Counted from the first letter of the stretch, positions 542 to 32,910 are shown. The stretch: 64,000 nucleotides of DNA from a bacterium (GCA_027448765.1 DAIDMV010000002.1:366-64365); one strand, 5' to 3'. Notes: generated by a model not told the origin, from the letters alone. Translations and numbers: made by a program.

Positions 542-1051
542 ATGAGTACTAAAAAAGATAATCTAATCATAAGAATTTCTTCATTGTTATTATTTGGTAT
601 AGCTTTTGGATATGTTGAAGCGGCAGTTGTTTTTTATTTAAGAAAAATTATTCATTTTCATAGTAATTACGATTTAACAAAGTACCACGTTATTTTAAAT
701 TTAAAATTTATCACCTTTGTTGATCCGATTCAAGCTTTATTAATTAATTCAAAAATCAATGAGGTTGAAGTGGTGAGAGAAGCTGCTACTATAGTCATGC
801 TTTTTTGTTTAGCCGTTTTAGTTGGTAAAAATAAATTACAGAAATTAGCGGTTTTTATGATTGGTTTTGCGACCTGGGATTTAGCTTATTATTTATTTTT
901 AAAAATTTTAGATAATTGGCCTAGGAGTTTATTCACTAAAGATGTTTTCTTTTTAATACCAGTTACTTGGATTGGACCGATTCTAACACCACTGATTATA
1001 TCAAGTTTAATTTTGATAGGTGGTATATTTTTGTATGTTAAACAGGATTAG
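542..1051 (+). CDS. Integral membrane protein, unknown function
   Basis: 169 aa with about five hydrophobic helices. No family recognised from sequence alone. The 3' end overlaps the convergent CHAP gene by 14 nt. Confidence 0.6.
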   Translation: MSTKKDNLIIRISSLLLFGIAFGYVEAAVVFYLRKIIHFHSNYDLTKYHVILNLKFITFVDPIQALLINSKINEVEVVREAATIVMLFCLAVLVGKNKLQKLAVFMIGFATWDLAYYLFLKILDNWPRSLFTKDVFFLIPVTWIGPILTPLIISSLILIGGIFLYVKQD

Positions 1052-1580
1052 GTAATGTTTTTTTATAAACTATATTTGGTGGATTATGAATAAAATTGAA
1101 ATATTTTGCTTGCTTGATTGTTAGAGTTTTTTGATCAACCACGTCTAAGCCATAAACATTCATTTCGCTAATCGTCCAATTGTCATTAATTGGATTGACT
1201 TTGATTACAAAAGCAACATGACCTAAAGGAGGTTGAGTTGTTTGCATAATAGAATCAACGCTTGGTGTATGGTTGATAATATAACCATCTTGAGCCGCTC
1301 GTTTAGCCCAAGTATTAGCGTTACCCCAGGTGTTTGGTATTGGTTGACCAATTTGTTGTCTTAATAAATAAACCCAGTAGGTACAGTTACCCCAAGCGTA
1401 ATGGTCCGACGGATCAATCGGACCAGTATAAAGTTGATGATTTAAGCTGATGTTATTATTGCCTATTAAAGCGGAAACAGAAATAATTGGTAGTAATAAT
1501 ATTAAGCTTAGTATTGAAATGGTAATAATTAATTCATATTTTAATTTAGCTGGTGTGAGTTGTCTTTTTAAAAAAATCAT
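1038..1580 (-). CDS. Membrane-anchored CHAP-domain peptidoglycan hydrolase (T4SS-associated)
   Basis: 180 aa with an N-terminal TM anchor. CHAP catalytic Cys context is WGNCTYWVY and His context is LGHVAFVI. It is the last gene of the T4SS-like operon, with a 4-nt overlap with the VirB4 ORF. Confidence 0.8.
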   Translation of the reverse strand: MIFLKRQLTPAKLKYELIITISILSLILLLPIISVSALIGNNNISLNHQLYTGPIDPSDHYAWGNCTYWVYLLRQQIGQPIPNTWGNANTWAKRAAQDGYIINHTPSVDSIMQTTQPPLGHVAFVIKVNPINDNWTISEMNVYGLDVVDQKTLTIKQAKYFNFIHNPPNIVYKKTLPNPV

Positions 1581-3289
1581 GATTGATAAATTTCATTAGG
1601 ATTGGTAGTAATAATTGGGTGTTCATGTTTACTGGCTGTGATTTTTACTGCTACATGGTAGGTATCAGCAATAATTAAAGCTTCTCCCTGGTCAGATGTT
1701 AAAAGAAAGTTTTCTTCAAATTCACTGAGATTAAATTCTTGAACAACATTTTTAATTGTCGTTGAGTCTTGTCTCATTAATATTCTTAAACTACTTTGAG
1801 AAGCAATAACTTTTCCATATTCGTTATTAAGAAAATCATTAGCTTGTTGAGAAATAATAGATACTCCTAGATAATATTTTCGTGACCGTCTAGTTAACCC
1901 GGCGATAAATTTAGCACTTTCTTCGTGTTGCATTAATAGCCACCCTTCGTCGATGATTAATAATCTTTTTTTGGGATTTAATTTAACTTGATAATTTACA
2001 AAATTAGAAATAATCATGATCACTAATTGTCTTAAATTATCAGCAATATCCTTAATATCAAAGATAATTAAATTATTAGCCAGATCAATATTAGTTTGAA
2101 AATTAAATATTTCTTTTAAACTACCAGATATAAATTTTTCCAGACGGTTAGCCAAATTCTGGCTACCTAATTCTTTAACTTCATCATATAGATTTTGTAG
2201 AATTGGGGTCTCTTCTTTAAATTTTTCATAAATGTTGATGATAGCTTTATCTAGAATTGATTTATCTTCTGAATTTAAACCATCAACCATCAACGATATA
2301 ATTGAGATAATATTTTGGATATGATCAGACAATGATTCTTTTGTTTGGTGACTTAGTTCAAGGTCAAATAAATTAATTTTTTGTTTTGAGTTTGTTGATA
2401 ATTGAATATATGTGCCGTCAAATTCTTCGGATAATTTTTTATATTCTTGTTCTGGATCAATGATAATAACTTGAACATCTTTAATTAATTGCCTCATTAT
2501 TTCTATTTTCATCGCATAGCTTTTACCAGATCCTGATTGAGCAAAAATAATTGAGTTAGCATTATTTAAATTAAAGCGATCAATAATCACCAAAGAGTTA
2601 TTGTTTTTATTAACACCATATAAAATACCGTTTTCTTGAACCAATTCACTGCTAATAAACGGAAAAGTTAGTGATAAAGCCGTACTGTCTAAGTTTCTTT
2701 TTTGATTGATTAGATCTTTGGCTTTGGGCAGAGTCGATTCATAGGCATCTAATTGTTGGTAGGTAGCATTTTTTGTATAAAAAAGATGACTGGCTAGAAT
2801 AGTTTCAATATTTTTTGTTTTTTCTTCCAAGTCGTTTAAATTGTTAGCTTTAATAGTAATATAGATACCAATTTGGAATAATTTTTCTTGACCTCGCATA
2901 ATTTTATCCCTTAACGATATAGCTGATTGGAGAGGATCAGCTATATCTGGACCAATTAGCTTACCGTTTTTGCGCATTAATCTTTTGGTTGACTCTAGTT
3001 CGGTGATTTTTCTTTGTAGTTTGGGCAAAGCGTCGATACTATTAATTAAATCAATATGATAGCTTAAGTCTATATCGTGGTTGTAATTAATTAGATTATT
3101 TAACCACCCGGTTGAGGCTACATAGGGATAACCTGAAATAAAAATTGTTTTTAAAAGTTGATTATTAATATTTAAGTGATGAGTGTTTTCTTCTAGTCCA
3201 GAGTAACTAATTAAGTCTAGATGATCTTGTTGACCTAATAAAAAATTATTATTTTTAGGATGATTATTTTTTAGTTTAATTTTAATCAT
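1577..3289 (-). CDS. virB4: VirB4/TraE-family type IV secretion ATPase (ATPase part)
   Basis: 570 aa. Walker A is AQSGSGKSY and Walker B is LLIIDEGW. The GYPYVASTGWLNNL...DLSYHI block is typical of Gram-positive-type VirB4. It has 4-nt overlaps with both neighbours. Confidence 0.85.
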   Translation of the reverse strand: MIKIKLKNNHPKNNNFLLGQQDHLDLISYSGLEENTHHLNINNQLLKTIFISGYPYVASTGWLNNLINYNHDIDLSYHIDLINSIDALPKLQRKITELESTKRLMRKNGKLIGPDIADPLQSAISLRDKIMRGQEKLFQIGIYITIKANNLNDLEEKTKNIETILASHLFYTKNATYQQLDAYESTLPKAKDLINQKRNLDSTALSLTFPFISSELVQENGILYGVNKNNNSLVIIDRFNLNNANSIIFAQSGSGKSYAMKIEIMRQLIKDVQVIIIDPEQEYKKLSEEFDGTYIQLSTNSKQKINLFDLELSHQTKESLSDHIQNIISIISLMVDGLNSEDKSILDKAIINIYEKFKEETPILQNLYDEVKELGSQNLANRLEKFISGSLKEIFNFQTNIDLANNLIIFDIKDIADNLRQLVIMIISNFVNYQVKLNPKKRLLIIDEGWLLMQHEESAKFIAGLTRRSRKYYLGVSIISQQANDFLNNEYGKVIASQSSLRILMRQDSTTIKNVVQEFNLSEFEENFLLTSDQGEALIIADTYHVAVKITASKHEHPIITTNPNEIYQS

Positions 3290-3900
3290 ATTATCCCCTT
3301 TTTCAAGTTCTTAATTAATTCTTGATTGATTGGTTGAATTTTATAAATATCGGGATTATAAATTTCATAAAATAAATTAAAGATATCTAAACTGGTTAAT
3401 CGTTTAGTCGATAGTTTTAATTTGGTTAAGTTTTTTTGAATGATATCGCAGTTAATGTTTAATTTATCCTTAGCTTCGATATAGTTATTATTGAAATCGT
3501 CAAGAGGTATAATTAGATAAAATAATCTAGTTAAAATTTTGTTTTTGTGACTTAGATTATTAACAAAGTCGATATAATTATTAATTTGATTTTTGTACTT
3601 AATATAATTAGCTTTATTTTTTAACGACGCTCTAAAATTTGATGTGTAAGTTTTAAGATCTAATTCCCTAACCTGAATATAAATTTGGATTCGTGAAGGT
3701 AGTGCGTTTAAAAAATTTTGATAAATTTCGGTTATTATATCTTTTTCTGATTCACTTTTTAATTCAAAATTAATAGTTGATATTTGAATAATTGCTCGGT
3801 AACGGTGGTCGGAAAGATGAAGTAAATCATCTTCAATACTAACAATGTCTAGCTGTTGTTTTGACGAAGCTTTAGTATTATTTTTTAAAAAATCTAACAT
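3286..3900 (-). CDS. VirB4 N-terminal-domain-like protein (separate ORF upstream of the ATPase)
   Basis: 204 aa. IVSIEDDLLHLSDHRYRAIIQISTINFELKSESEKDII..YQNFLNAL resembles, from memory of the family, the extreme N-terminus of full-length Gram-positive VirB4 proteins. ATGA overlap with the ATPase ORF. 204+570 aa is about the full-length VirB4 size. Confidence 0.5.
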   Translation of the reverse strand: MLDFLKNNTKASSKQQLDIVSIEDDLLHLSDHRYRAIIQISTINFELKSESEKDIITEIYQNFLNALPSRIQIYIQVRELDLKTYTSNFRASLKNKANYIKYKNQINNYIDFVNNLSHKNKILTRLFYLIIPLDDFNNNYIEAKDKLNINCDIIQKNLTKLKLSTKRLTSLDIFNLFYEIYNPDIYKIQPINQELIKNLKKGII

Positions 3901-4372
3901 AAATTTTTCCTTGTTTAGTGATTTTAAAACTAAAATTAGAACTTTTTTGATCAGTTAAATTATCAATAGAAATTGTCTGAAATTTATTTATCTTTGGTTG
4001 ATTGATTTTATGATGATTATTTTTTTTAGGTTTTTTGAAATCTTGGAGATTATAATTTGATGATAGTTGCTTGAATTGATTTTTATTAAAAACGTAGTAT
4101 CTTGGCCTTAAAAGATAAAGTATGATTACGATGAGCCAATTTAAGATAAGCTTATTGTTAAGTCTAATTGCTAGTGCACTGATTGAACTGATTAACAAAA
4201 CCATCAGTATTATTTTATAAACATCAATACTGTTAAATGGAGGAAAAATTAAATAAATGATAAATGATAGGATCAATGGAATTATTAATATAATTAATTG
4301 ATTAAGACTTAAATTATGAGTGATGTGATCCTCTATATTAATTACTTGGGAGGGAATATTAGTAGTTTTCAT
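3878..4372 (-). CDS. PrgI/VirB3-like small membrane protein (assigned by context)
   Basis: 164 aa with two adjacent TM helices near the N-terminus and then a basic, Asn-rich tail. It lies between the VirB6-like and VirB4 genes, as PrgI/VirB3-type components do. Confidence 0.45.
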   Translation of the reverse strand: MKTTNIPSQVINIEDHITHNLSLNQLIILIIPLILSFIIYLIFPPFNSIDVYKIILMVLLISSISALAIRLNNKLILNWLIVIILYLLRPRYYVFNKNQFKQLSSNYNLQDFKKPKKNNHHKINQPKINKFQTISIDNLTDQKSSNFSFKITKQGKIYVRFFKK

Positions 4373-4374
4373 AG

Positions 4375-5556
4375 TTATTTCACAATATTAATGACATAAT
4401 TAGATAATTTTCTGATCGCTTTTGGCGTAACTGAAACGAAATCAAGTTCCATTAACATTTTTTGAGTTTTTAGAAGTGTAATCAGTGTTGCTATTCCAAC
4501 AATTGAGGGCATTAACGGATTAAAATTTTTGGTGTTGTTATCAATTAAACTGCTTAAAATAATCGAAGCTAAAAGTAAAATAATGACATGAACAAATAAA
4601 ACAAAAATTGTTGAAAAGTAAGTTTTAACGCTGATTGTAACGAAATCTCTAAAACTGGGTAGTAAACTTAATAGAAAAATTAAAGGTGAGAGAATGGCGC
4701 CTAAATAGAGCACTACTAAACGCATAATATAATAAACTAATAAGATGACGCATAAGATAACAAAAATTAGTAAAATTAACATACTGACTAAACTTAATCC
4801 ATTACTAGACTTAGCTACTTGATTTAGAATATTCCAAACAGTTAATTTGGGAAAACTATTGTAAAGAGCTTGAACCATATAGTTTGATAGGTTGATTATT
4901 AAATCTATGATAAAAATTGAAGAGTTCATTAAGATAAAGGTAAAAATTATGACTGGGGCCATGTTTTTTAAAGAGATGTCCTCAAGTCCTAGACTTGAAC
5001 TGGTAATGATGTGTAAACCTAAAAGTGTAATCATTAAGATCATCAAGCTGTCGGCAATCCCAACTATGACTAACCAAATTTTTAAAACACTTTGGTTGCT
5101 AGCCATTAATGGTGTTGAGTGGGTAAAGTATATTAGTGCCTGAATAAATGGTTGAGCAATAGAAAAAACTATATTTTTTAATAGACCGATAATACTGTCG
5201 ATTATAATAGTAACAATTCCGTTTTTTGTTGGCTGAACCTTAAGACTCCTAATTGCTGGTACGCTGGCTGTTGTGACATGGCTAGAAAGATTGTAATTCT
5301 GCCACAAAAAATGAACTAAAAAAGCTGAGGCGATAACGATAATAAGCCCAATAATTGATTTTTTAATAATAATTTTAGCATGAAGAAGTTTTTCTGGATT
5401 ACCGGCACTGGTCATATATTCAAAACCAGCTTGAATTAGGAAGAAAGTTGTTAAGAGACCGGCCAAAACACTTAAACCTAAGATAATTGGTTGAATTTGA
5501 TTAATTAAATTCTGATTTAGATTAACTAAATTAAATATTTCAAAAAAATTATTCAT
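4375..5556 (-). CDS. VirB6/TrbL-like polytopic membrane protein with N-terminal pilin-like module
   Basis: 393 aa with many TM segments. Position and topology match VirB6/TrbL. N-terminal residues repeat the pilin-like motif of the upstream gene (GFEYMTSAGNPEKLLHAK versus GFIYITSTGNPTKLEKAK). Confidence 0.6.
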   Translation of the reverse strand: MNNFFEIFNLVNLNQNLINQIQPIILGLSVLAGLLTTFFLIQAGFEYMTSAGNPEKLLHAKIIIKKSIIGLIIVIASAFLVHFLWQNYNLSSHVTTASVPAIRSLKVQPTKNGIVTIIIDSIIGLLKNIVFSIAQPFIQALIYFTHSTPLMASNQSVLKIWLVIVGIADSLMILMITLLGLHIITSSSLGLEDISLKNMAPVIIFTFILMNSSIFIIDLIINLSNYMVQALYNSFPKLTVWNILNQVAKSSNGLSLVSMLILLIFVILCVILLVYYIMRLVVLYLGAILSPLIFLLSLLPSFRDFVTISVKTYFSTIFVLFVHVIILLLASIILSSLIDNNTKNFNPLMPSIVGIATLITLLKTQKMLMELDFVSVTPKAIRKLSNYVINIVK

Positions 5557-5558
5557 CT

Positions 5559-5903
5559 TTATCCCCCAAAGGCGCTGGTGGCTAACTGAGTAACAATATT
5601 AGATAAAACGAAAGCCGCTATCGTAATTGCTAAACCTAGACTAGAAAACAGTAATGTTTTTTTAGCTTTTTCTAGTTTTGTTGGATTACCGGTACTAGTG
5701 ATATAAATAAACCCCCCTATAACAAAAAAGCCGGTCGCTACAAGACCGGCTAAACCTGCTATTGCTTGGATAATTGTTTTTAAAAAATTATCCACTGACC
5801 CCAGGCCAACTGGCGAGGCCGCTAGAGCTTGATTGGGGATAATAATCTCGAGAAAAAGAACGCTAAAGAAGAGCTTTATTTTAAGTTTGTTTAAGTTTTT
5901 CAT
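5559..5903 (-). CDS. T4SS pilin-like protein (VirB2/TrbC-like architecture)
   Basis: 114 aa. A signal peptide ends at QALA-AS, and two hydrophobic helices flank the short loop TSTGNPTKLEKAKK. It is the first gene of the cluster. AAGGAG lies upstream of the ATG. Confidence 0.6.
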   Translation of the reverse strand: MKNLNKLKIKLFFSVLFLEIIIPNQALAASPVGLGSVDNFLKTIIQAIAGLAGLVATGFFVIGGFIYITSTGNPTKLEKAKKTLLFSSLGLAITIAAFVLSNIVTQLATSAFGG

Positions 5904-6076
5904 CTTAATACTCCTTTAATTGACAGGAGTATCACACAATATTTATATAAATGCAATAATATTTTAAAACATAAGAAATTTAAATTTAAATTTATATGAT
6001 TATGAAACGTTGACTATTTTACAAAAAGCTGGGTTTTTTCTATTTAATGATAAAATTATTATAATCTATTGTGATT

Positions 6077-27538: not shown

Positions 27539-29122
27539 ATGAGTCAGTTAATCGATAGTAATGCTTGGCAAAATTTAATTAATCTGCAAGATAAATATCA
27601 AAAAACATCAATTAAAGATTTGTTTGATAATGATCCTGATCGGGCAAATCGTTATAGTTTTCAACTAGATGATTTAATGATTGATTTGTCTAAGAATTTA
27701 ATCAATCAAGAAATTGTTGATAATTTAATAAAATTAGCTGAATCGGCTAATTTAAGTCAATCGATAGAATCATTTTTTAAAGGTGATAAATTAAATTATA
27801 CTGAAAACCGTCCAGCTCTTCATTTTTTATTGCGTGATCTCAGTCAATCACCTTTTATCTTAGACGGTCTTGATTTAAAACTAAAAGTTAATCAAGTTCT
27901 TGATCGAATGAAAGATTTCAGTCAAAAAATTAATCAATCTGAATTATTTGGCTGTAGCGGTAAGGTTATAAAGAATATTGTTAATATCGGTATTGGCGGC
28001 TCTGATCTTGGACCAGAAAGCGTTTATTTGGCTTTAAGTGATTATGCTAACCCTCGTTTAGTAATAAGATTTATTTCTAATATTGATTATGATAATTTTT
28101 ATACTGTATTAAAAGATTTAGATCCAGCCGAGACAATCTTTTTGATTTCGTCAAAAACTTTTTCAACCGACGAAACCATCGCCAATGCTTTATCGGCTAA
28201 AGCTTGGTTGAGTCAGGCGCTAGGGCCAGATTCTTTTAAGGATCATCTTTTCGCCATTACGGCTAATCCTGATCAAGCCCACCAATTTGGTATATCGACT
28301 GATCATATTTTCGAATTTTGGGATTGGGTTGGTGGACGTTATTCGGTTTGTTCAGCGATAGGTTTAATTATTATGATCAGTATTGGCTGGTCAAATTTTC
28401 ATGAATTTTTAACTGGATTTTATCAAGTTGATCAACACTTTAAAACTACTCCCCTTGTTACCAATGTACCTGTTCTATTGGCTTTAATTAGTATTTGGTA
28501 TCATAATTTTTGGAATTATCGAACTGAAGCTATAATTCCGTATAGTTATCATTTGAGCTTATTACCAGCTTATTTACAACAAGCTGTCATGGAAAGTAAC
28601 GGAAAAAATGTTAATAAAAATGGACAAGTCGTCGACTATTTAACTTCCCCGGTTGTTTGGGGTCAATCTGGTACTAATGCTCAGCATGCTTTTTTTCAAC
28701 TTTATCATCAAGGTACGGAAATTGTACCAGTTGATTTTATTGGTTTTATGTCTTCGACTTATGACGATTCTAAACACCGCAGCAAACTCTTAGCCAATAT
28801 GTTGGCTCAAGCTCAAGCTTTGGCTTTTGGACGAACCGATCAAGTTACAGATATGAATCGTCAGTTTTTTGGTAATCGACCGAGTAATATATTTTTAGCT
28901 AAATCTTTAAGCCCTAAAGCCTTGGGACAGATCATTGGACTTTATGAAGCTAAAATATTTTGTCAAGGTATTATTTGGCAAATTAATTCATTTGATCAAT
29001 ATGGAGTTGAACTTGGTAAGGTATTAGCTGGTCAAATAGAAAATGGACTTAATGCATCAAATCATCATTTTGATTTTGATTCTTCAACTAATTTGTTGCT
29101 TAATTATATACAAAAAAAATAA
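27539..29122 (+). CDS. pgi: Glucose-6-phosphate isomerase
   Basis: 527 aa with IGIGGSDLGP, SKTFST.ET and MESNGK. Confidence 0.95.
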   Translation: MSQLIDSNAWQNLINLQDKYQKTSIKDLFDNDPDRANRYSFQLDDLMIDLSKNLINQEIVDNLIKLAESANLSQSIESFFKGDKLNYTENRPALHFLLRDLSQSPFILDGLDLKLKVNQVLDRMKDFSQKINQSELFGCSGKVIKNIVNIGIGGSDLGPESVYLALSDYANPRLVIRFISNIDYDNFYTVLKDLDPAETIFLISSKTFSTDETIANALSAKAWLSQALGPDSFKDHLFAITANPDQAHQFGISTDHIFEFWDWVGGRYSVCSAIGLIIMISIGWSNFHEFLTGFYQVDQHFKTTPLVTNVPVLLALISIWYHNFWNYRTEAIIPYSYHLSLLPAYLQQAVMESNGKNVNKNGQVVDYLTSPVVWGQSGTNAQHAFFQLYHQGTEIVPVDFIGFMSSTYDDSKHRSKLLANMLAQAQALAFGRTDQVTDMNRQFFGNRPSNIFLAKSLSPKALGQIIGLYEAKIFCQGIIWQINSFDQYGVELGKVLAGQIENGLNASNHHFDFDSSTNLLLNYIQKK

Positions 29123-29150
29123 ACCGGAATATAAAATCCGGTTTATTATA
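29121..29150 (+). terminator. Rho-independent terminator of pgi
   Basis: AAACCGGA (29121-29128) pairs with TCCGGTTT (29137-29144) around an 8-nt loop, followed by the T-rich ATTATATTT. Confidence 0.75.
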
Positions 29151-29279
29151 TTTGTTGATTTGTGAATGGCTTTTCTCCAATACGAGACTTTATTGTGGCG
29201 AGCTATTAAAGTCTGACTAATTGCTTTGCGGTCTATATTAAATTTGGTATAGACTTATATTGCCATAACTGTGTTGGTT

Positions 29280-30182
29280 TTAAGGTTTCTTGTTATTGAT
29301 AGGTTTCTTGTTATTGCTAGGATTGTTATTGTTCATATTGCTAGGATTGTTATTGTTGTTATTGCTAGGATTGTTATTGTTCATATTGCTAGGATTGTTA
29401 TTGTTCATATTGCTAGGATTGTTATTGTTCATATTGCTAGGATTGTTATTGTTGTTCTGGGAATTTTTTGTATTGTGTGAGTTGACTGTGTTATTAGAAT
29501 GACTGTTAGAGGTATTGTTGTTGTTAGATTTGGTTTGATTATAGCTATTGTTGTTCTTAGTAGTTTGATTATTTGATTGAATAGTATTATTGGACTTAAC
29601 AGTATTGCCATTATTGTTGTGTGAAGCAATGGTGTTGCCATTGTTGTTGTTTGAGTTTAATGGTGCGTTATTGGTGTTGTTAGAATATAAATTATTGTTG
29701 GATTTAACAGTTTTATTAAAACTGTTGCTAGTGTTGTAACTATCAGTGTAAGTATTGTTAGTTGTGGTTGTGTCGTTAGTGGTTGAAGTATTAGTTTCAG
29801 TATTGTAAGTGTAAGTATCGTAAGAATCTGTAGTTACAATTCTTGAAATTGGCATTTCTGAACCATTGGCATAATCGCCGACAGCACTGTTTGAATCTGG
29901 ATTAGTGTTAGTTGCGCTAGATGTGTTGCTGCCATTAGAACTAGTAACGGTGACTGATCCATTGCTTTGTTGAGTAGCTGGATTAGAGCAAGTATTAGAA
30001 TTACTATTTGTTTTTTGAGTATCAGAAATATTTTTCATGATACCTGTTGATAAAACATTGAATTGTGCTTTAACGATGTCTGTAGTAATTAAAACAGAAA
30101 TTAAAATTACTAAAGGTAAACCAATCATTAAAATCAAAAGATTTGTATTGATTGCAATATTGGAAGAATTAAATTTAGGCAT
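29280..30182 (-). CDS. Membrane-anchored Asn/Ser/Thr-rich low-complexity surface protein with C-terminal octapeptide repeats
   Basis: 300 aa with an N-terminal TM anchor (LLILMIGLPLVILISVLI). The rest is dominated by N, S and T. The C-terminus carries six copies of NNNNPSN(M/N). AAGGAG RBS. Confidence 0.75.
   Translation of the reverse strand: MPKFNSSNIAINTNLLILMIGLPLVILISVLITTDIVKAQFNVLSTGIMKNISDTQKTNSNSNTCSNPATQQSNGSVTVTSSNGSNTSSATNTNPDSNSAVGDYANGSEMPISRIVTTDSYDTYTYNTETNTSTTNDTTTTNNTYTDSYNTSNSFNKTVKSNNNLYSNNTNNAPLNSNNNNGNTIASHNNNGNTVKSNNTIQSNNQTTKNNNSYNQTKSNNNNTSNSHSNNTVNSHNTKNSQNNNNNPSNMNNNNPSNMNNNNPSNMNNNNPSNNNNNNPSNMNNNNPSNNKKPINNKKP
29313..29456. repeat. Six head-to-tail copies of a 24-bp unit inside the surface-protein gene
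   Basis: The unit ATTGCTAGGATTGTTATTGTTCAT starts at 29313, 29337, 29361, 29385, 29409 and 29433. Copies 2 and 6 end GTT instead of CAT. An 18-bp unit AGGTTTCTTGTTATTGNT x2 lies immediately upstream (29283-29318). Confidence 0.9.
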
Positions 30183-30437
30183 AATACCCCTTCTCCTTGA
30201 TTAATTAATAAACTCCACCTCCAACTCTATTACTAGAGTTTAATAAGCGCTTATACTGATATTTATTTAATACCTATATTTACAAAAATGCAATAATGTT
30301 TTAAAACATTAGCGTTTTATTTCTGTAATTTTTATCTGTTAGTCCGTTGTATATAAAACTTTTACTGATGTCTAGCTGATTTTTTTTGTAATAAATTTTT
30401 ATTTAGGTCTAATTATTTGTATAATTAAAAATTAGTT

Positions 30438-31400
30438 ATGAAATTAGTTATTTTTATACCTTGCTTAAATGAGGAACAAACCTTACCCATCGTTATCGAT
30501 TCGATTCCAAAAAAAATTAAAGGCATTGATAAAATTGAAATTTTAGTTATTGATGATGGTTCAACCGATAAAACATCAGCTGTAGCGAAAAAATTAGGCG
30601 TAACTCGTATCATTAGACATGTTGGCAATAAAGGTCTAGCCTATTCGTTCCGCGACGGCATCAGGGGTTCTTTAGAAATGGGTGCCGACATCATTGTTTT
30701 AACCGATGGAGATAATCAATACCCTCAAGAACGAATTCCGGATCTAATTCAACCAATCTTAAATCAAACAGCTGATTTAGTGATTGCCGATCGGCAAATT
30801 GATAAGATCCCTCATTTTACTAACTTTAAAAAGTTTTTACAAAAATTTGGTACTTGGGTTCTAAATAATGCGGCTGGTACTGATTTACCAGATGGTACAT
30901 CTGGTTTTCGAGCTTTTTCAAAAGAAGCAGCTATCGATATTAATCTGATTACTAGATATAGTTTTGGGATGGAAACAGCTATTCAGGCTGGCAATAAACG
31001 TCAAAGAATAGCAACAATTAAAATTAAAACTAATCCTAAAACTCGAGAATCTCGCTTAATGAGTTCTGATCTAGGTCATGCTAAAAAGTCAGCCGTGGCT
31101 ATCATGAGGGGTTATTTGATGTATAAACCCTATGTCGTCTTTATTACACTCGGTTTTATTATGTTATTAGTTGGTTTGGTGCCTTTTGTTAATTATTTGA
31201 TAATCTTTTTAACCACTAAACATCCAGGTGGACCGCATCATATTCAGTCATTATTATTGGGTGTAGTTTTTTTGGTAGCTTCATTCTTCTCGTTTGCTTT
31301 AGCACTTTTAGCTGATTTGATTAGAATTAATCGTTCTTTACTAGAAGATGTTTTAGAACATCAAAGAAGAGTTGAATATATTAAAAAAACCAAAAATTAG
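30438..31400 (+). CDS. GT2 polyprenol-phosphate glycosyltransferase (Ppm1/DPM1/GtrB-like)
   Basis: 320 aa with FIPCLNEE, VIDDGSTD and TDGDNQY, plus two C-terminal TM helices. Confidence 0.85.
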   Translation: MKLVIFIPCLNEEQTLPIVIDSIPKKIKGIDKIEILVIDDGSTDKTSAVAKKLGVTRIIRHVGNKGLAYSFRDGIRGSLEMGADIIVLTDGDNQYPQERIPDLIQPILNQTADLVIADRQIDKIPHFTNFKKFLQKFGTWVLNNAAGTDLPDGTSGFRAFSKEAAIDINLITRYSFGMETAIQAGNKRQRIATIKIKTNPKTRESRLMSSDLGHAKKSAVAIMRGYLMYKPYVVFITLGFIMLLVGLVPFVNYLIIFLTTKHPGGPHHIQSLLLGVVFLVASFFSFALALLADLIRINRSLLEDVLEHQRRVEYIKKTKN

Positions 31401-32910
31401 ACGAGTAGTGTTTTTTACCTTCAATAATAACGTGTTTGGTGATATGTTTAGCGGTTTTATTGATCGTTTTAACAGTCTGATTATTGATGAGCCAGCTATC
31501 TTCGCTTCTAGATATAAAGGTTAAGACACCACCACCTTCTAAGAACATTAAAACTATAATAATAGCTAAAAAAACTTTAACTTTTGGATGATGTTTTAAT
31601 AATTTGATTAAAAAGAATCCACCAATTGAAGCCATAAAGAGCAAAATTGGAATTAAATAGCGGCCGTTCATTAATTCCAGGACATTAGTATACAGGTAGG
31701 TTTGAAAACCTTCAAAAATTAAGGCAATTAAATAGATTACGATGACTAGAATCATTAAATTGATATAGTCATTGGTCTTAAAGATTTTTTTCCGGTATTT
31801 TATTAAAGCAAATATGACTATAGCGGCTAGAATTAAGAAAGCAGCACTTGGTAGTGGCAGTGGTGGATAATTAGAGAAATGAGTTTTTACTCCACTAACC
31901 GAGAAGAATAAACGATACCAAATCCAATAAACCCATTGTCCTAAATAAATAATAAAATTTTTATTTGGTTTGTAGGCGTTGTTAATTAATTCTTGATGGG
32001 TGACATAATTATGAAACCAAACACTATATGATGAGCATTGAGCCACACTGAGGACGTCATTGCATGGTGGATTAATAGTGTGATATTGAATTAAATTAAG
32101 ACCATCCCTTTGAAAAAATAAAGCTGCGGCAATCACAAAAAAAACTATAATCAGTAGCTTGGATAATTTAGAAATTGATTTAAAATTGTTTTTTAAGTTT
32201 AACCACATGTTTTTAAAAGATTTATCTGATACCTGATAAATTACAAAAATTAAATAAATTCCGATACCGGCCGCAATTGGTTCGTAAGCAAATTTGACTA
32301 ATGAAGCAAAAATAGCCAATATTACAATTGAAGCTAGAAGATTAATATTGAATTGTTTTTTTCTGAGTTGTTTGATGGCTTTAGCGCTTAAATAGGCAGT
32401 TAAGCCGGTCATTAAAAACATCATATTGTCATAATTAATTTGACCGGCCAGTTGTGGTACGATTGGAATAAGAGTAAAGATTAAAATCGATAGATTAGTA
32501 TAAATTTTTGATAGACCAATTTCCAGCATAAATTTATAAAAATAAATTAGACCAATCGTAAATAAAACAACGTCGATTAATCTTAGAAAAATAACTTGGC
32601 TGATTTGATTATGGACGAAGTTAGCATAAATTCTATAAGGAAAACTCATCAGATAATGATAAAGATACGAGGGGTGGACGGCGACATCACCATATGGATT
32701 GCCTCCCCGAGGTTGTTTAGTTAAAAATGGTGACAAATGACGGGCATAAATTCTGATTAACCCAAAATGAAAATTTTCATCAAAAGCTTGAGGATAAGCT
32801 GCTGAAATAGAAATCCAAACGGCCTCTAAAATAAAAAATACTAAAATTGTTATAAAGAAATAATTAGACTTAAAATAACTATTAAATTTCTCCTTAATCT
32901 TTGTTCTCAT
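31381..32910 (-). CDS. GT-C membrane glycosyltransferase, PMT (GT39)-like
   Basis: 509 aa with more than 10 TM helices. The first extracytoplasmic loop carries AFDENFHFGLIRIYA, matching the PMT signature FDE.HF....Y. Confidence 0.65.
   Translation of the reverse strand: MRTKIKEKFNSYFKSNYFFITILVFFILEAVWISISAAYPQAFDENFHFGLIRIYARHLSPFLTKQPRGGNPYGDVAVHPSYLYHYLMSFPYRIYANFVHNQISQVIFLRLIDVVLFTIGLIYFYKFMLEIGLSKIYTNLSILIFTLIPIVPQLAGQINYDNMMFLMTGLTAYLSAKAIKQLRKKQFNINLLASIVILAIFASLVKFAYEPIAAGIGIYLIFVIYQVSDKSFKNMWLNLKNNFKSISKLSKLLIIVFFVIAAALFFQRDGLNLIQYHTINPPCNDVLSVAQCSSYSVWFHNYVTHQELINNAYKPNKNFIIYLGQWVYWIWYRLFFSVSGVKTHFSNYPPLPLPSAAFLILAAIVIFALIKYRKKIFKTNDYINLMILVIVIYLIALIFEGFQTYLYTNVLELMNGRYLIPILLFMASIGGFFLIKLLKHHPKVKVFLAIIIVLMFLEGGGVLTFISRSEDSWLINNQTVKTINKTAKHITKHVIIEGKKHYSSNFWFF

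Follow-up and report, generated by a model that had tools for sequence, protein, structure and literature searches.

The window considered here is a stretch of 64,000 nt (contig C2, positions 366-64365) of a genome, G000, that belongs to Candidatus Saccharibacteria, order Saccharimonadales. The assembly comprises 745 kb in 97 contigs with 32.5% G+C and 93% completeness, and its nearest relatives are MAGs from lake or sediment. Two genes in this window are each preceded by a copy of a short intergenic block. A preliminary description had placed both copies upstream of minus-strand genes, and the two gene starts, 5903 and 30182, are confirmed. The genes, the two blocks and the insertion that surrounds the second are as follows:

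1038-5903, minus strand: T4SS pilin operon, Gram-positive-type, accessory
5559-5903, minus strand: T4SS pilin gene (PF18895), 114 aa, first gene of the operon
5939-5975, minus strand: block copy 1, CTTATGTTTTAAAATATTATTGCATTTATATAAATAT on the coding strand, upstream of the T4SS pilin gene
29123-30437, unstranded: clade-specific insertion, 1.3 kb, between pgi (27539-29122) and a GT2 gene (30438-31400)
29280-30182, minus strand: gene for an Asn/Ser/Thr-rich surface protein, 300 aa, N-terminal anchor, orthologues only in G004 and G005
30276-30312, minus strand: block copy 2, CTAATGTTTTAAAACATTATTGCATTTTTGTAAATAT, upstream of the surface-protein gene

Besides the pilin, the operon codes for a pilin-domain membrane protein, PrgI, a VirB4-like ATPase and a CHAP hydrolase. 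The Asn/Ser/Thr-rich surface protein has no Pfam match; no homologues were found among 40 relatives beyond those in the sister genomes G004 and G005, and no paralogue of the protein or of the inserted DNA was found elsewhere in the genome. It is rich in N-x-S/T triplets, and its gene adjoins those of a GT2 glycosyltransferase and of a 509-aa protein without a Pfam match (29123-31400, 31381-32910); the protein could be a glycosylation substrate. Against Rfam, the window yields no match at the gathering score other than two tRNAs.

The two 37-mers read as originally quoted, with 33 of 37 positions identical (5939-5975 versus 30276-30312), and a repeat search of the window lengthens the pair to 44 nt at 84% identity (family D7). 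The 22-nt core, ATGCAATAATRTTTTAAAACAT, has two matches in the window with up to three mismatches, as compared to a mean of 0.05 in 100 dinucleotide shuffles, none of which contained two or more. The genome-wide search that had been suggested finds no sites but these two at up to two mismatches across all 97 contigs; the next-best match has three and lies within a coding region. Likewise, a 25-nt position weight matrix (PWM) scores the two sites at 36.0 and 33.4 bits, with the runner-up in the whole genome, at 14.5 bits, inside an ORF, and the 37-mer is the sole blastn match between the 1.3-kb insertion and the genome (E = 9e-7). Thus, the scatter over random positions, genes included, that the preliminary description had named as the damaging outcome is seen neither in the genome search nor with the PWM. 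Conservation at orthologous genes, also proposed as a check, is borne out in both sister genomes: each of them has the block at both loci and two occurrences of the 22-mer in all, one at either gene. More broadly, strong matches to a model of the region number at most one per genome in 251 genomes of the order, the exceptions being the present clade and one other genome. Since no more than two promoters of this genome carry the full 37-mer, a wider regulon for the full block was rejected. While a G+C content of 32.5% might invite an explanation by chance similarity in A/T-rich intergenic DNA, the shuffles, the 18-bit gap down to the next-best site, the blastn E-value and the recurrence of both copies, at the corresponding genes, in the sister genomes have already refuted it, leaving it practically no probability.

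Copy 1 is the core of the predicted promoter region of the T4SS pilin operon. The parts of this region are given here in transcriptional order, with P_A denoting the order-wide pilin promoter:

5965-5976, minus strand: box 12-mer TCTTATGTTTTA with core CTTATG at 5970-5975, the GCTTATG(C) box of Saccharimonadales in its local form
5956-5961, minus strand: TATTAT, alternative -10-like hexamer in the block, 8 nt after the box; candidate inner promoter
5951-5956, minus strand: TTGCAT, -35-like hexamer of P_A
5928-5938, minus strand: extended -10 of P_A, TGTG-T-GATACT, 17 nt past TTGCAT; invariant in five genus genomes

The TTGCAT claimed for the coding strand is present at both sites. The order-wide layout consists of the CTTATG box, an A/T tract, the TTGCAT -35-like hexamer, a spacer of 17-18 nt and an extended -10. 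Upstream of pilin orthologues of 50-70% amino acid identity from many families, the pattern (G)CTTATG-yTaTAAAAnnTAn-TTGCAt-N17/18-TRTGnTAnnnT is kept amid unrelated flanks and is followed by a short leader with GGAGG. An alignment of 29 sequences shows TTATG, the TT of the -35, the TG and the A at -11 to be either invariant or conserved at 90% or more. The -35/extended -10 pair, counted without selecting on the box, occurs in 41 of 62 non-redundant orthologous loci against an estimated expectation of about 4%, and in 17 of these 41 TTATG begins 18-20 nt upstream of the -35. The box word itself (CTTATG/CATAAG) is found 49 times in the 62 upstream regions as compared to 8.1 +/- 2.5 times in shuffles, a 6-fold excess, with control words of the same composition occurring 4-11 times. 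A pattern scan of 401 genomes of the order gave eight matches outside the host genome, seven of them at the pilin, and none for a reversed control pattern; correspondingly, a sequence-only model of the region (R1) has strong matches almost exclusively at pilin promoters. Among members of the genus, the segment between CTTATG and GATACT, both included, stands as a conserved island amid diverged spacer. At site 1, the 17 nt between TTGCAT and GATACT fall in the 16-18 nt range of sigma-A promoters, and the -10 has the A at position 2, the T at position 6 and a preceding TG (TGTG-T-GATACT). TTGCAT agrees with the TTGACA consensus at only three of six positions and is therefore a weak -35; a consensus promoter scanner called P_A at neither site.

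Copy 2 and the surface-protein gene are carried by the 1.3-kb insertion, which is present only in the host genome, G004 and G005; in the same-genus genomes G001, G003, G006 and G007 the gap between pgi and the GT2 gene measures only ~80-100 nt and holds no insertion. The elements at this site are:

30302-30313, minus strand: box 12-mer GCTAATGTTTTA, a variant with A where T is nearly invariant (CTAATG)
30294-30311, unstranded: perfect palindrome TAATGTTTTAAAACATTA, in the host genome only and broken in both sister genomes
30293-30298, minus strand: CATTAT, alternative -10-like hexamer in the block; TATTAT in both sister genomes
30288-30293, minus strand: TTGCAT
30265-30270, minus strand: TTAAAT, 17 nt after TTGCAT; a poor -10, lacking both the A at position 2 and a preceding TG
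30243-30254, unstranded: palindrome ATAAGCGCTTAT, two inverted GCTTAT half-boxes in the surface-protein gene leader, downstream of the block; kept in three genomes

The same leader has a 7-bp hairpin, AACTCTA-ttac-TAGAGTT (30222-30239), conserved in the three genomes. Lacking the key A, TTAAAT leaves copy 2 without a good P_A -10; the alternative hexamer in the block, CATTAT/TATTAT, has the A and the T and is not preceded by TG. The two copies have in common the clade-specific states TGTTTTAAAA (instead of TGyTATAAAA) and ATTATTGCAT. Moreover, of 12 spacer positions after TTGCAT that are essentially free to vary in the order-wide alignment, 10 are identical in the two copies, an agreement for which we estimate a chance of about 1e-4. 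Together, the shared states and the spacer agreement point to copying rather than convergence as the origin of copy 2. Accordingly, we posit that in the ancestor of the host and its two sister genomes 37-45 nt of the pilin promoter region would have been placed before the newly inserted surface-protein gene.

The box at the upstream end of the block has a distribution of its own. Scanning the host genome for [GT]CT[TA]ATG[TC]T[TA]TA gave 10 matches, of which six are genic, about the number expected by chance, and four intergenic. All four of the latter lie directly upstream of envelope genes, namely those for the T4SS pilin, the surface protein, pilM (PF11104) and a type IV pseudopilin (N_methyl). 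By itself, CTTATG shows no enrichment upstream of host genes (15 forward and 15 reverse occurrences, ~17 expected), and we rejected it as a general promoter element of this genome. The pilM promoter reads GCTTATG-T-TATAAT, 7 nt before the ATG, while that of the pseudopilin has the box, 7 nt and TATAAT. With the box just upstream and TATAAT only 6-9 nt ahead of the start codon, both mRNAs are probably leaderless. These two promoters, and the genes behind box-plus-promoter modules in other genomes, are:

C11:14196-14219 and C1:25361-25389 (contigs outside the window): box promoters of pilM and the 518-aa type IV pseudopilin
G313 and G266: ~180-aa secreted proteins ending in LPNTG and a hydrophobic tail
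G268: an LPTTG protein
G021: an anchored S/T/N-rich protein
G149: a secreted DUF11 protein
G001 and G002: a ~70-aa membrane protein behind a near-consensus TTGACT-N16-TATAAT

In G001 and G002 the box stands at the same distance upstream of the promoter as at the pilin. The window sites fall within the GCTTATGC-box class of envelope promoters: each has an oriented, promoter-proximal box (TCTTATGT at site 1 and the variant GCTAATGT at site 2), and the association of the class with pilus and surface genes holds in the host genome (4/4 intergenic matches). They share with the GCTTATGC-box promoters the box, a TTGCA-type hexamer and the bias toward surface genes. They differ in that their box is degenerate and not fused to the -10, that behind it stand a T4SS pilin operon and, at site 2, the gene for an orphan surface protein specific to the clade, and that a 37-nt block around it would have been copied from one to the other. 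In the literature searched we found no description of the (G)CTTATG box or of a T4SS promoter architecture in Saccharibacteria. A further promoter in this genome (C8:28621-28662) has TTGCAT as its -35, a perfect TGCTATAAT and, 21 nt ahead of the -35, CTTATG; it scores 18 bits with R1 and fronts a gene for a 558-aa acidic membrane protein without a Pfam match.

As to where transcription would start, three overlapping -10-like hexamers are possible in such A/T-rich sites. One option is P_A (TTGCAT-17 nt-TGTG-T-GATACT), which is convincing at site 1 and in the relatives and poor at site 2, and which extends beyond the shared block. The other is an inner promoter formed by the box, 8 nt and TATTAT (CATTAT at site 2 of the host), which lies wholly within the shared block. 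It parallels the pseudopilin promoter with its box, 7 nt and TATAAT, would account for the endpoint of the copied block, and would place a proposed anti-Shine-Dalgarno hairpin in the pilin leader. That hairpin (5908-5932) is weak: it has five pairs at -3 kcal/mol, and four members of the genus show no compensatory change. The box with TATAAA as sole promoter, i.e., an upstream extended -10, was set aside and kept as an alternative: the following hexamer is poorly conserved as a -10 and reads TTTAAA in the host clade.

Sigma70_r2 has one match in the genome (91.8 bits, C8:7655-7864; 93%-complete assembly). With a single sigma-70-family gene, the sigma-A holoenzyme is expected to read all these promoters, and one such holoenzyme would serve both the pilin and the surface-protein promoters. 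The element would be a lineage-specific variant of the sigma-A promoter. The box at its upstream end would make it a member of a Saccharibacteria-wide class of envelope-gene promoters, the host set of which would include pilM and the pseudopilin. Given the same sigma factor and an envelope-class box at both sites, the pilin operon and the surface protein are probably under the same box-dependent control, a co-regulation that we deduce from sequence. The presence of the box before surface and pilus genes, both here and in other families, makes linked expression of the pilin and the surface protein plausible. Hence, we favor, with reasonable though far from complete confidence, the interpretation of the pair as a duplicated promoter module: the native promoter region of the pilin, copied before an inserted surface gene, with shared box-dependent control and one sigma-A. 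The box could be read by the polymerase itself, as the pilM box forms the TRTG part of an extended -10, or by a separate factor, as in several lineages multiple copies of the box occur in both orientations in the control region. Going further, we tentatively suggest, while leaning somewhat against it, that the (G)CTTATG(C) box may be the site of a dedicated reader, either a transcription factor or an unusual sigma-A contact, which would define a Saccharibacteria envelope regulon of type IV pili, the T4SS pilin operon and lineage-specific surface proteins. Any newly gained surface gene would then be recruited to the host-contact program by means of a copied promoter cassette, as may have happened with the Asn/Ser/Thr-rich protein.

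Other readings of the pair have to be weighed against the duplicated promoter module. Copy 2 might be a functionless relic carried in by the inserting recombination, with the surface gene transcribed from another signal. Its missing P_A -10, its box altered to CTAATG and its distance of 94 nt from the start codon, versus 36 nt at site 1, would suit such a relic, but the block is correctly oriented and the promoter scanner calls no other sigma-70-type promoter in the 255-nt intergenic region. The three genomes that have site 2 are ~88-90% identical in intergenic sequence, and this closeness means that conservation of the site is no proof of constraint and that purifying selection could go unrevealed; still, the stretch just upstream of copy 2 varies more than the block among the three. 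Box-plus-promoter modules also precede unrelated surface proteins in other families, and on the whole we consider a relic unlikely, though with some claim to attention. That the copies are attachment-site-like direct repeats, or the ends of a small mobile element, flanking a 24-kb island is scarcely credible. They are indeed direct repeats, 24.3 kb apart on one contig; however, G006 and G007, where site 2 is missing, show synteny across the junction of the pilin and CDP-alcohol transferase operons. This site 1 junction is ancestral to the genus, excluding a 24-kb island bounded by the repeats, and the inserted DNA is limited to 1.3 kb around site 2. The interval also includes housekeeping genes such as pgi, the repeats are merely 89% identical, and copy 1 is conserved order-wide as the pilin promoter.

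The palindrome raises the question of an operator. The preliminary description had read the pair as a shared promoter plus an operator co-regulating both genes; of this, the promoter-region block stands and linked expression is plausible, whereas the palindromic operator fails on one-sided conservation. The A/T palindrome reported beside TTGCAT is a perfect 18 nt at site 2 (TAATGTTTTAAAACATTA, 30294-30311) and imperfect at all copies of site 1, and does not hold up as a conserved operator. That the palindrome AATGTTTTAAAACATT next to the -35 serves a dimeric activator or repressor of both genes is in our view decidedly unlikely. The perfect dyad does abut TTGCAT at site 2 and the block is present at two promoters only, but G004 and G005 carry T for C at site 2, which breaks the dyad, and order-wide conservation covers the left end (CTTATG) and does not extend to the mirror half. 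The self-complementarity of TTTTAAAA is a mere result of composition. Moreover, the Xre-type regulator that accompanies the pilin promoter in other lineages has no detectable homologue in this genome, and neither site has another candidate regulator close by: we found no cognate DNA-binding protein there, the neighbors being receiver-only response regulators and enzymes.

Pilin control regions elsewhere in the order display considerable diversity. At 13 related loci (L063, L109, L069, L098, L106, L094 and seven others) a gene for a ~70-aa Xre-type helix-turn-helix protein lies upstream of the pilin promoter, divergently in 12 of the 13 and within ~250 nt in six; tblastn finds no homologue of it in the host genome. 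In other families (L045, L047, L049, L050, L052, L111, L132, L098 and others) an inverted repeat overlaps the pilin -35, with covarying arms such as TTGCA-N4-TGCAA, TTGAC..GTCAA, TTTAC..GTAAA and TTGTA..TACAA. This repeat, which is absent from the genus of the window, might act as an operator, represent the -35 elements of two divergent promoters placed back to back, or form a hairpin at the very start of a transcript. Integrative elements are known to use divergent Xre-type repressor/operator switches, e.g., ImmR of ICEBs1. The 13 loci with the 70-aa Xre-type gene and the -35-overlapping inverted repeat in those lineages recall such switches; the genus of the window, in contrast, has neither the gene nor the repeat. 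The pilin promoters at L066, L084, L090, L092, L095, L099 and L110 lack the CTTATG box and have a different conserved word, AAGTGCCGTCTTG, instead. A gene for an HxlR-like regulator is often found near these loci, several of which are in human-associated or oral-taxon genomes. Finally, in many lineages a second conserved word, the G/C-rich ACCCCTG or ACCCCAT, is found 5-6 nt upstream of the box (L101, L077, L134, L170, L177, L096 and L071); it is absent in the host genome; at L101 and L077, CTTATGCT-N12-AGCATAAG constitutes an 8-bp inverted repeat around the ACCCC word.

Among known systems, the closest to the duplicated promoter module are the Gram-positive extended -10 ('-16 region', TRTGn) promoters of sigma-A. 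Common to both are a -35-like hexamer, a spacing of 17-18 nt and TRTG-n-TAnnnT, in which TG and the A at -11 reach a conservation of 90% or more. As in those with a UP-like tract, there is an A-tract at about -44 to -41, along with a single housekeeping sigma factor, and the pilM box itself forms the TRTG, fused to TATAAT. Unlike them, the Saccharibacteria promoters have a conserved, G/C-containing (G)CTTATG(C) at about -54 to -49, outside the UP-element consensus, which lies 1, 7 or 8 nt from the following hexamer or ~40 nt upstream of the P_A -10 and is confined to a handful of envelope-gene promoters per genome. As for a UP element proper, the A-tract is present, and block and box are not general across the promoters of the genome.

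In pIP501/pSK41-type plasmids the promoter of the T4SS operon overlaps the relaxase site. The Ptra/oriT of these plasmids resembles site 1 as a control region that immediately precedes the leading gene of a T4SS operon of the Gram-positive type, and in some lineages there is a short GCATAAG(T) resemblance to the pSK41 oriT. The host locus differs in having no nick-site core, relaxase or inverted repeat, and in that the second copy serves a gene unrelated to the T4SS. One might nevertheless view the box as the relic of a conjugative oriT, with GCATAAG(T) as the nick-region remnant of an ancestral MPF-FATA element that had its oriT in the transfer-operon promoter, an idea we regard as very improbable. 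The pSK41 oriT reads ...CGTTCGCATAAGTGCGCCCTTA, some Saccharimonadales pilin promoters bear AGCATAAGTG or the inverted repeat CTTATGCT-N12-AGCATAAG, and an oral clade has TAAGTGCCGTCTTG at the corresponding place. These identities extend over 6-9 nt only, with ~0.7 9-mer matches expected by chance on our estimate, and the host block has CATAAG only, on the opposite strand and with no GCGCC core. Compared with the pSK41 oriT, the locus has none of the MOBQ-type nick-region core TAAGTGCGCCCT, the inverted repeat and the relaxase, and no relaxase is among the ORFs annotated around the two sites. A descent of the Patescibacteria T4SS from MPF-FATA conjugation systems, as reported (PMC12102498), would suit such a relic, but the same box precedes type IV pilus and LPXTG genes that are unrelated to DNA transfer.

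Saccharibacteria live on other bacteria, to which they attach. The cultured Southlakia epibionticum requires the T4SS, the T4SS pilins and type IV pili in order to grow on its host (PMC10633639). On the control of Saccharibacteria T4SS or pilus genes, nothing was found in the literature searched, this study included, and the word "promoter" is absent from the T4SS survey PMC12102498. A promoter signature common to pilus, secretion and surface genes would offer a handle for finding the regulator, a means of predicting which orphan surface proteins belong to the host-contact program, and candidate native promoters for new genetic tools. The pilin operon and the surface-protein gene probably share one control signal, and, if copy 2 arose by copying as its sequence suggests, the locus would cleanly illustrate how a new gene is wired into an established expression program via about 40 nt of copied promoter.
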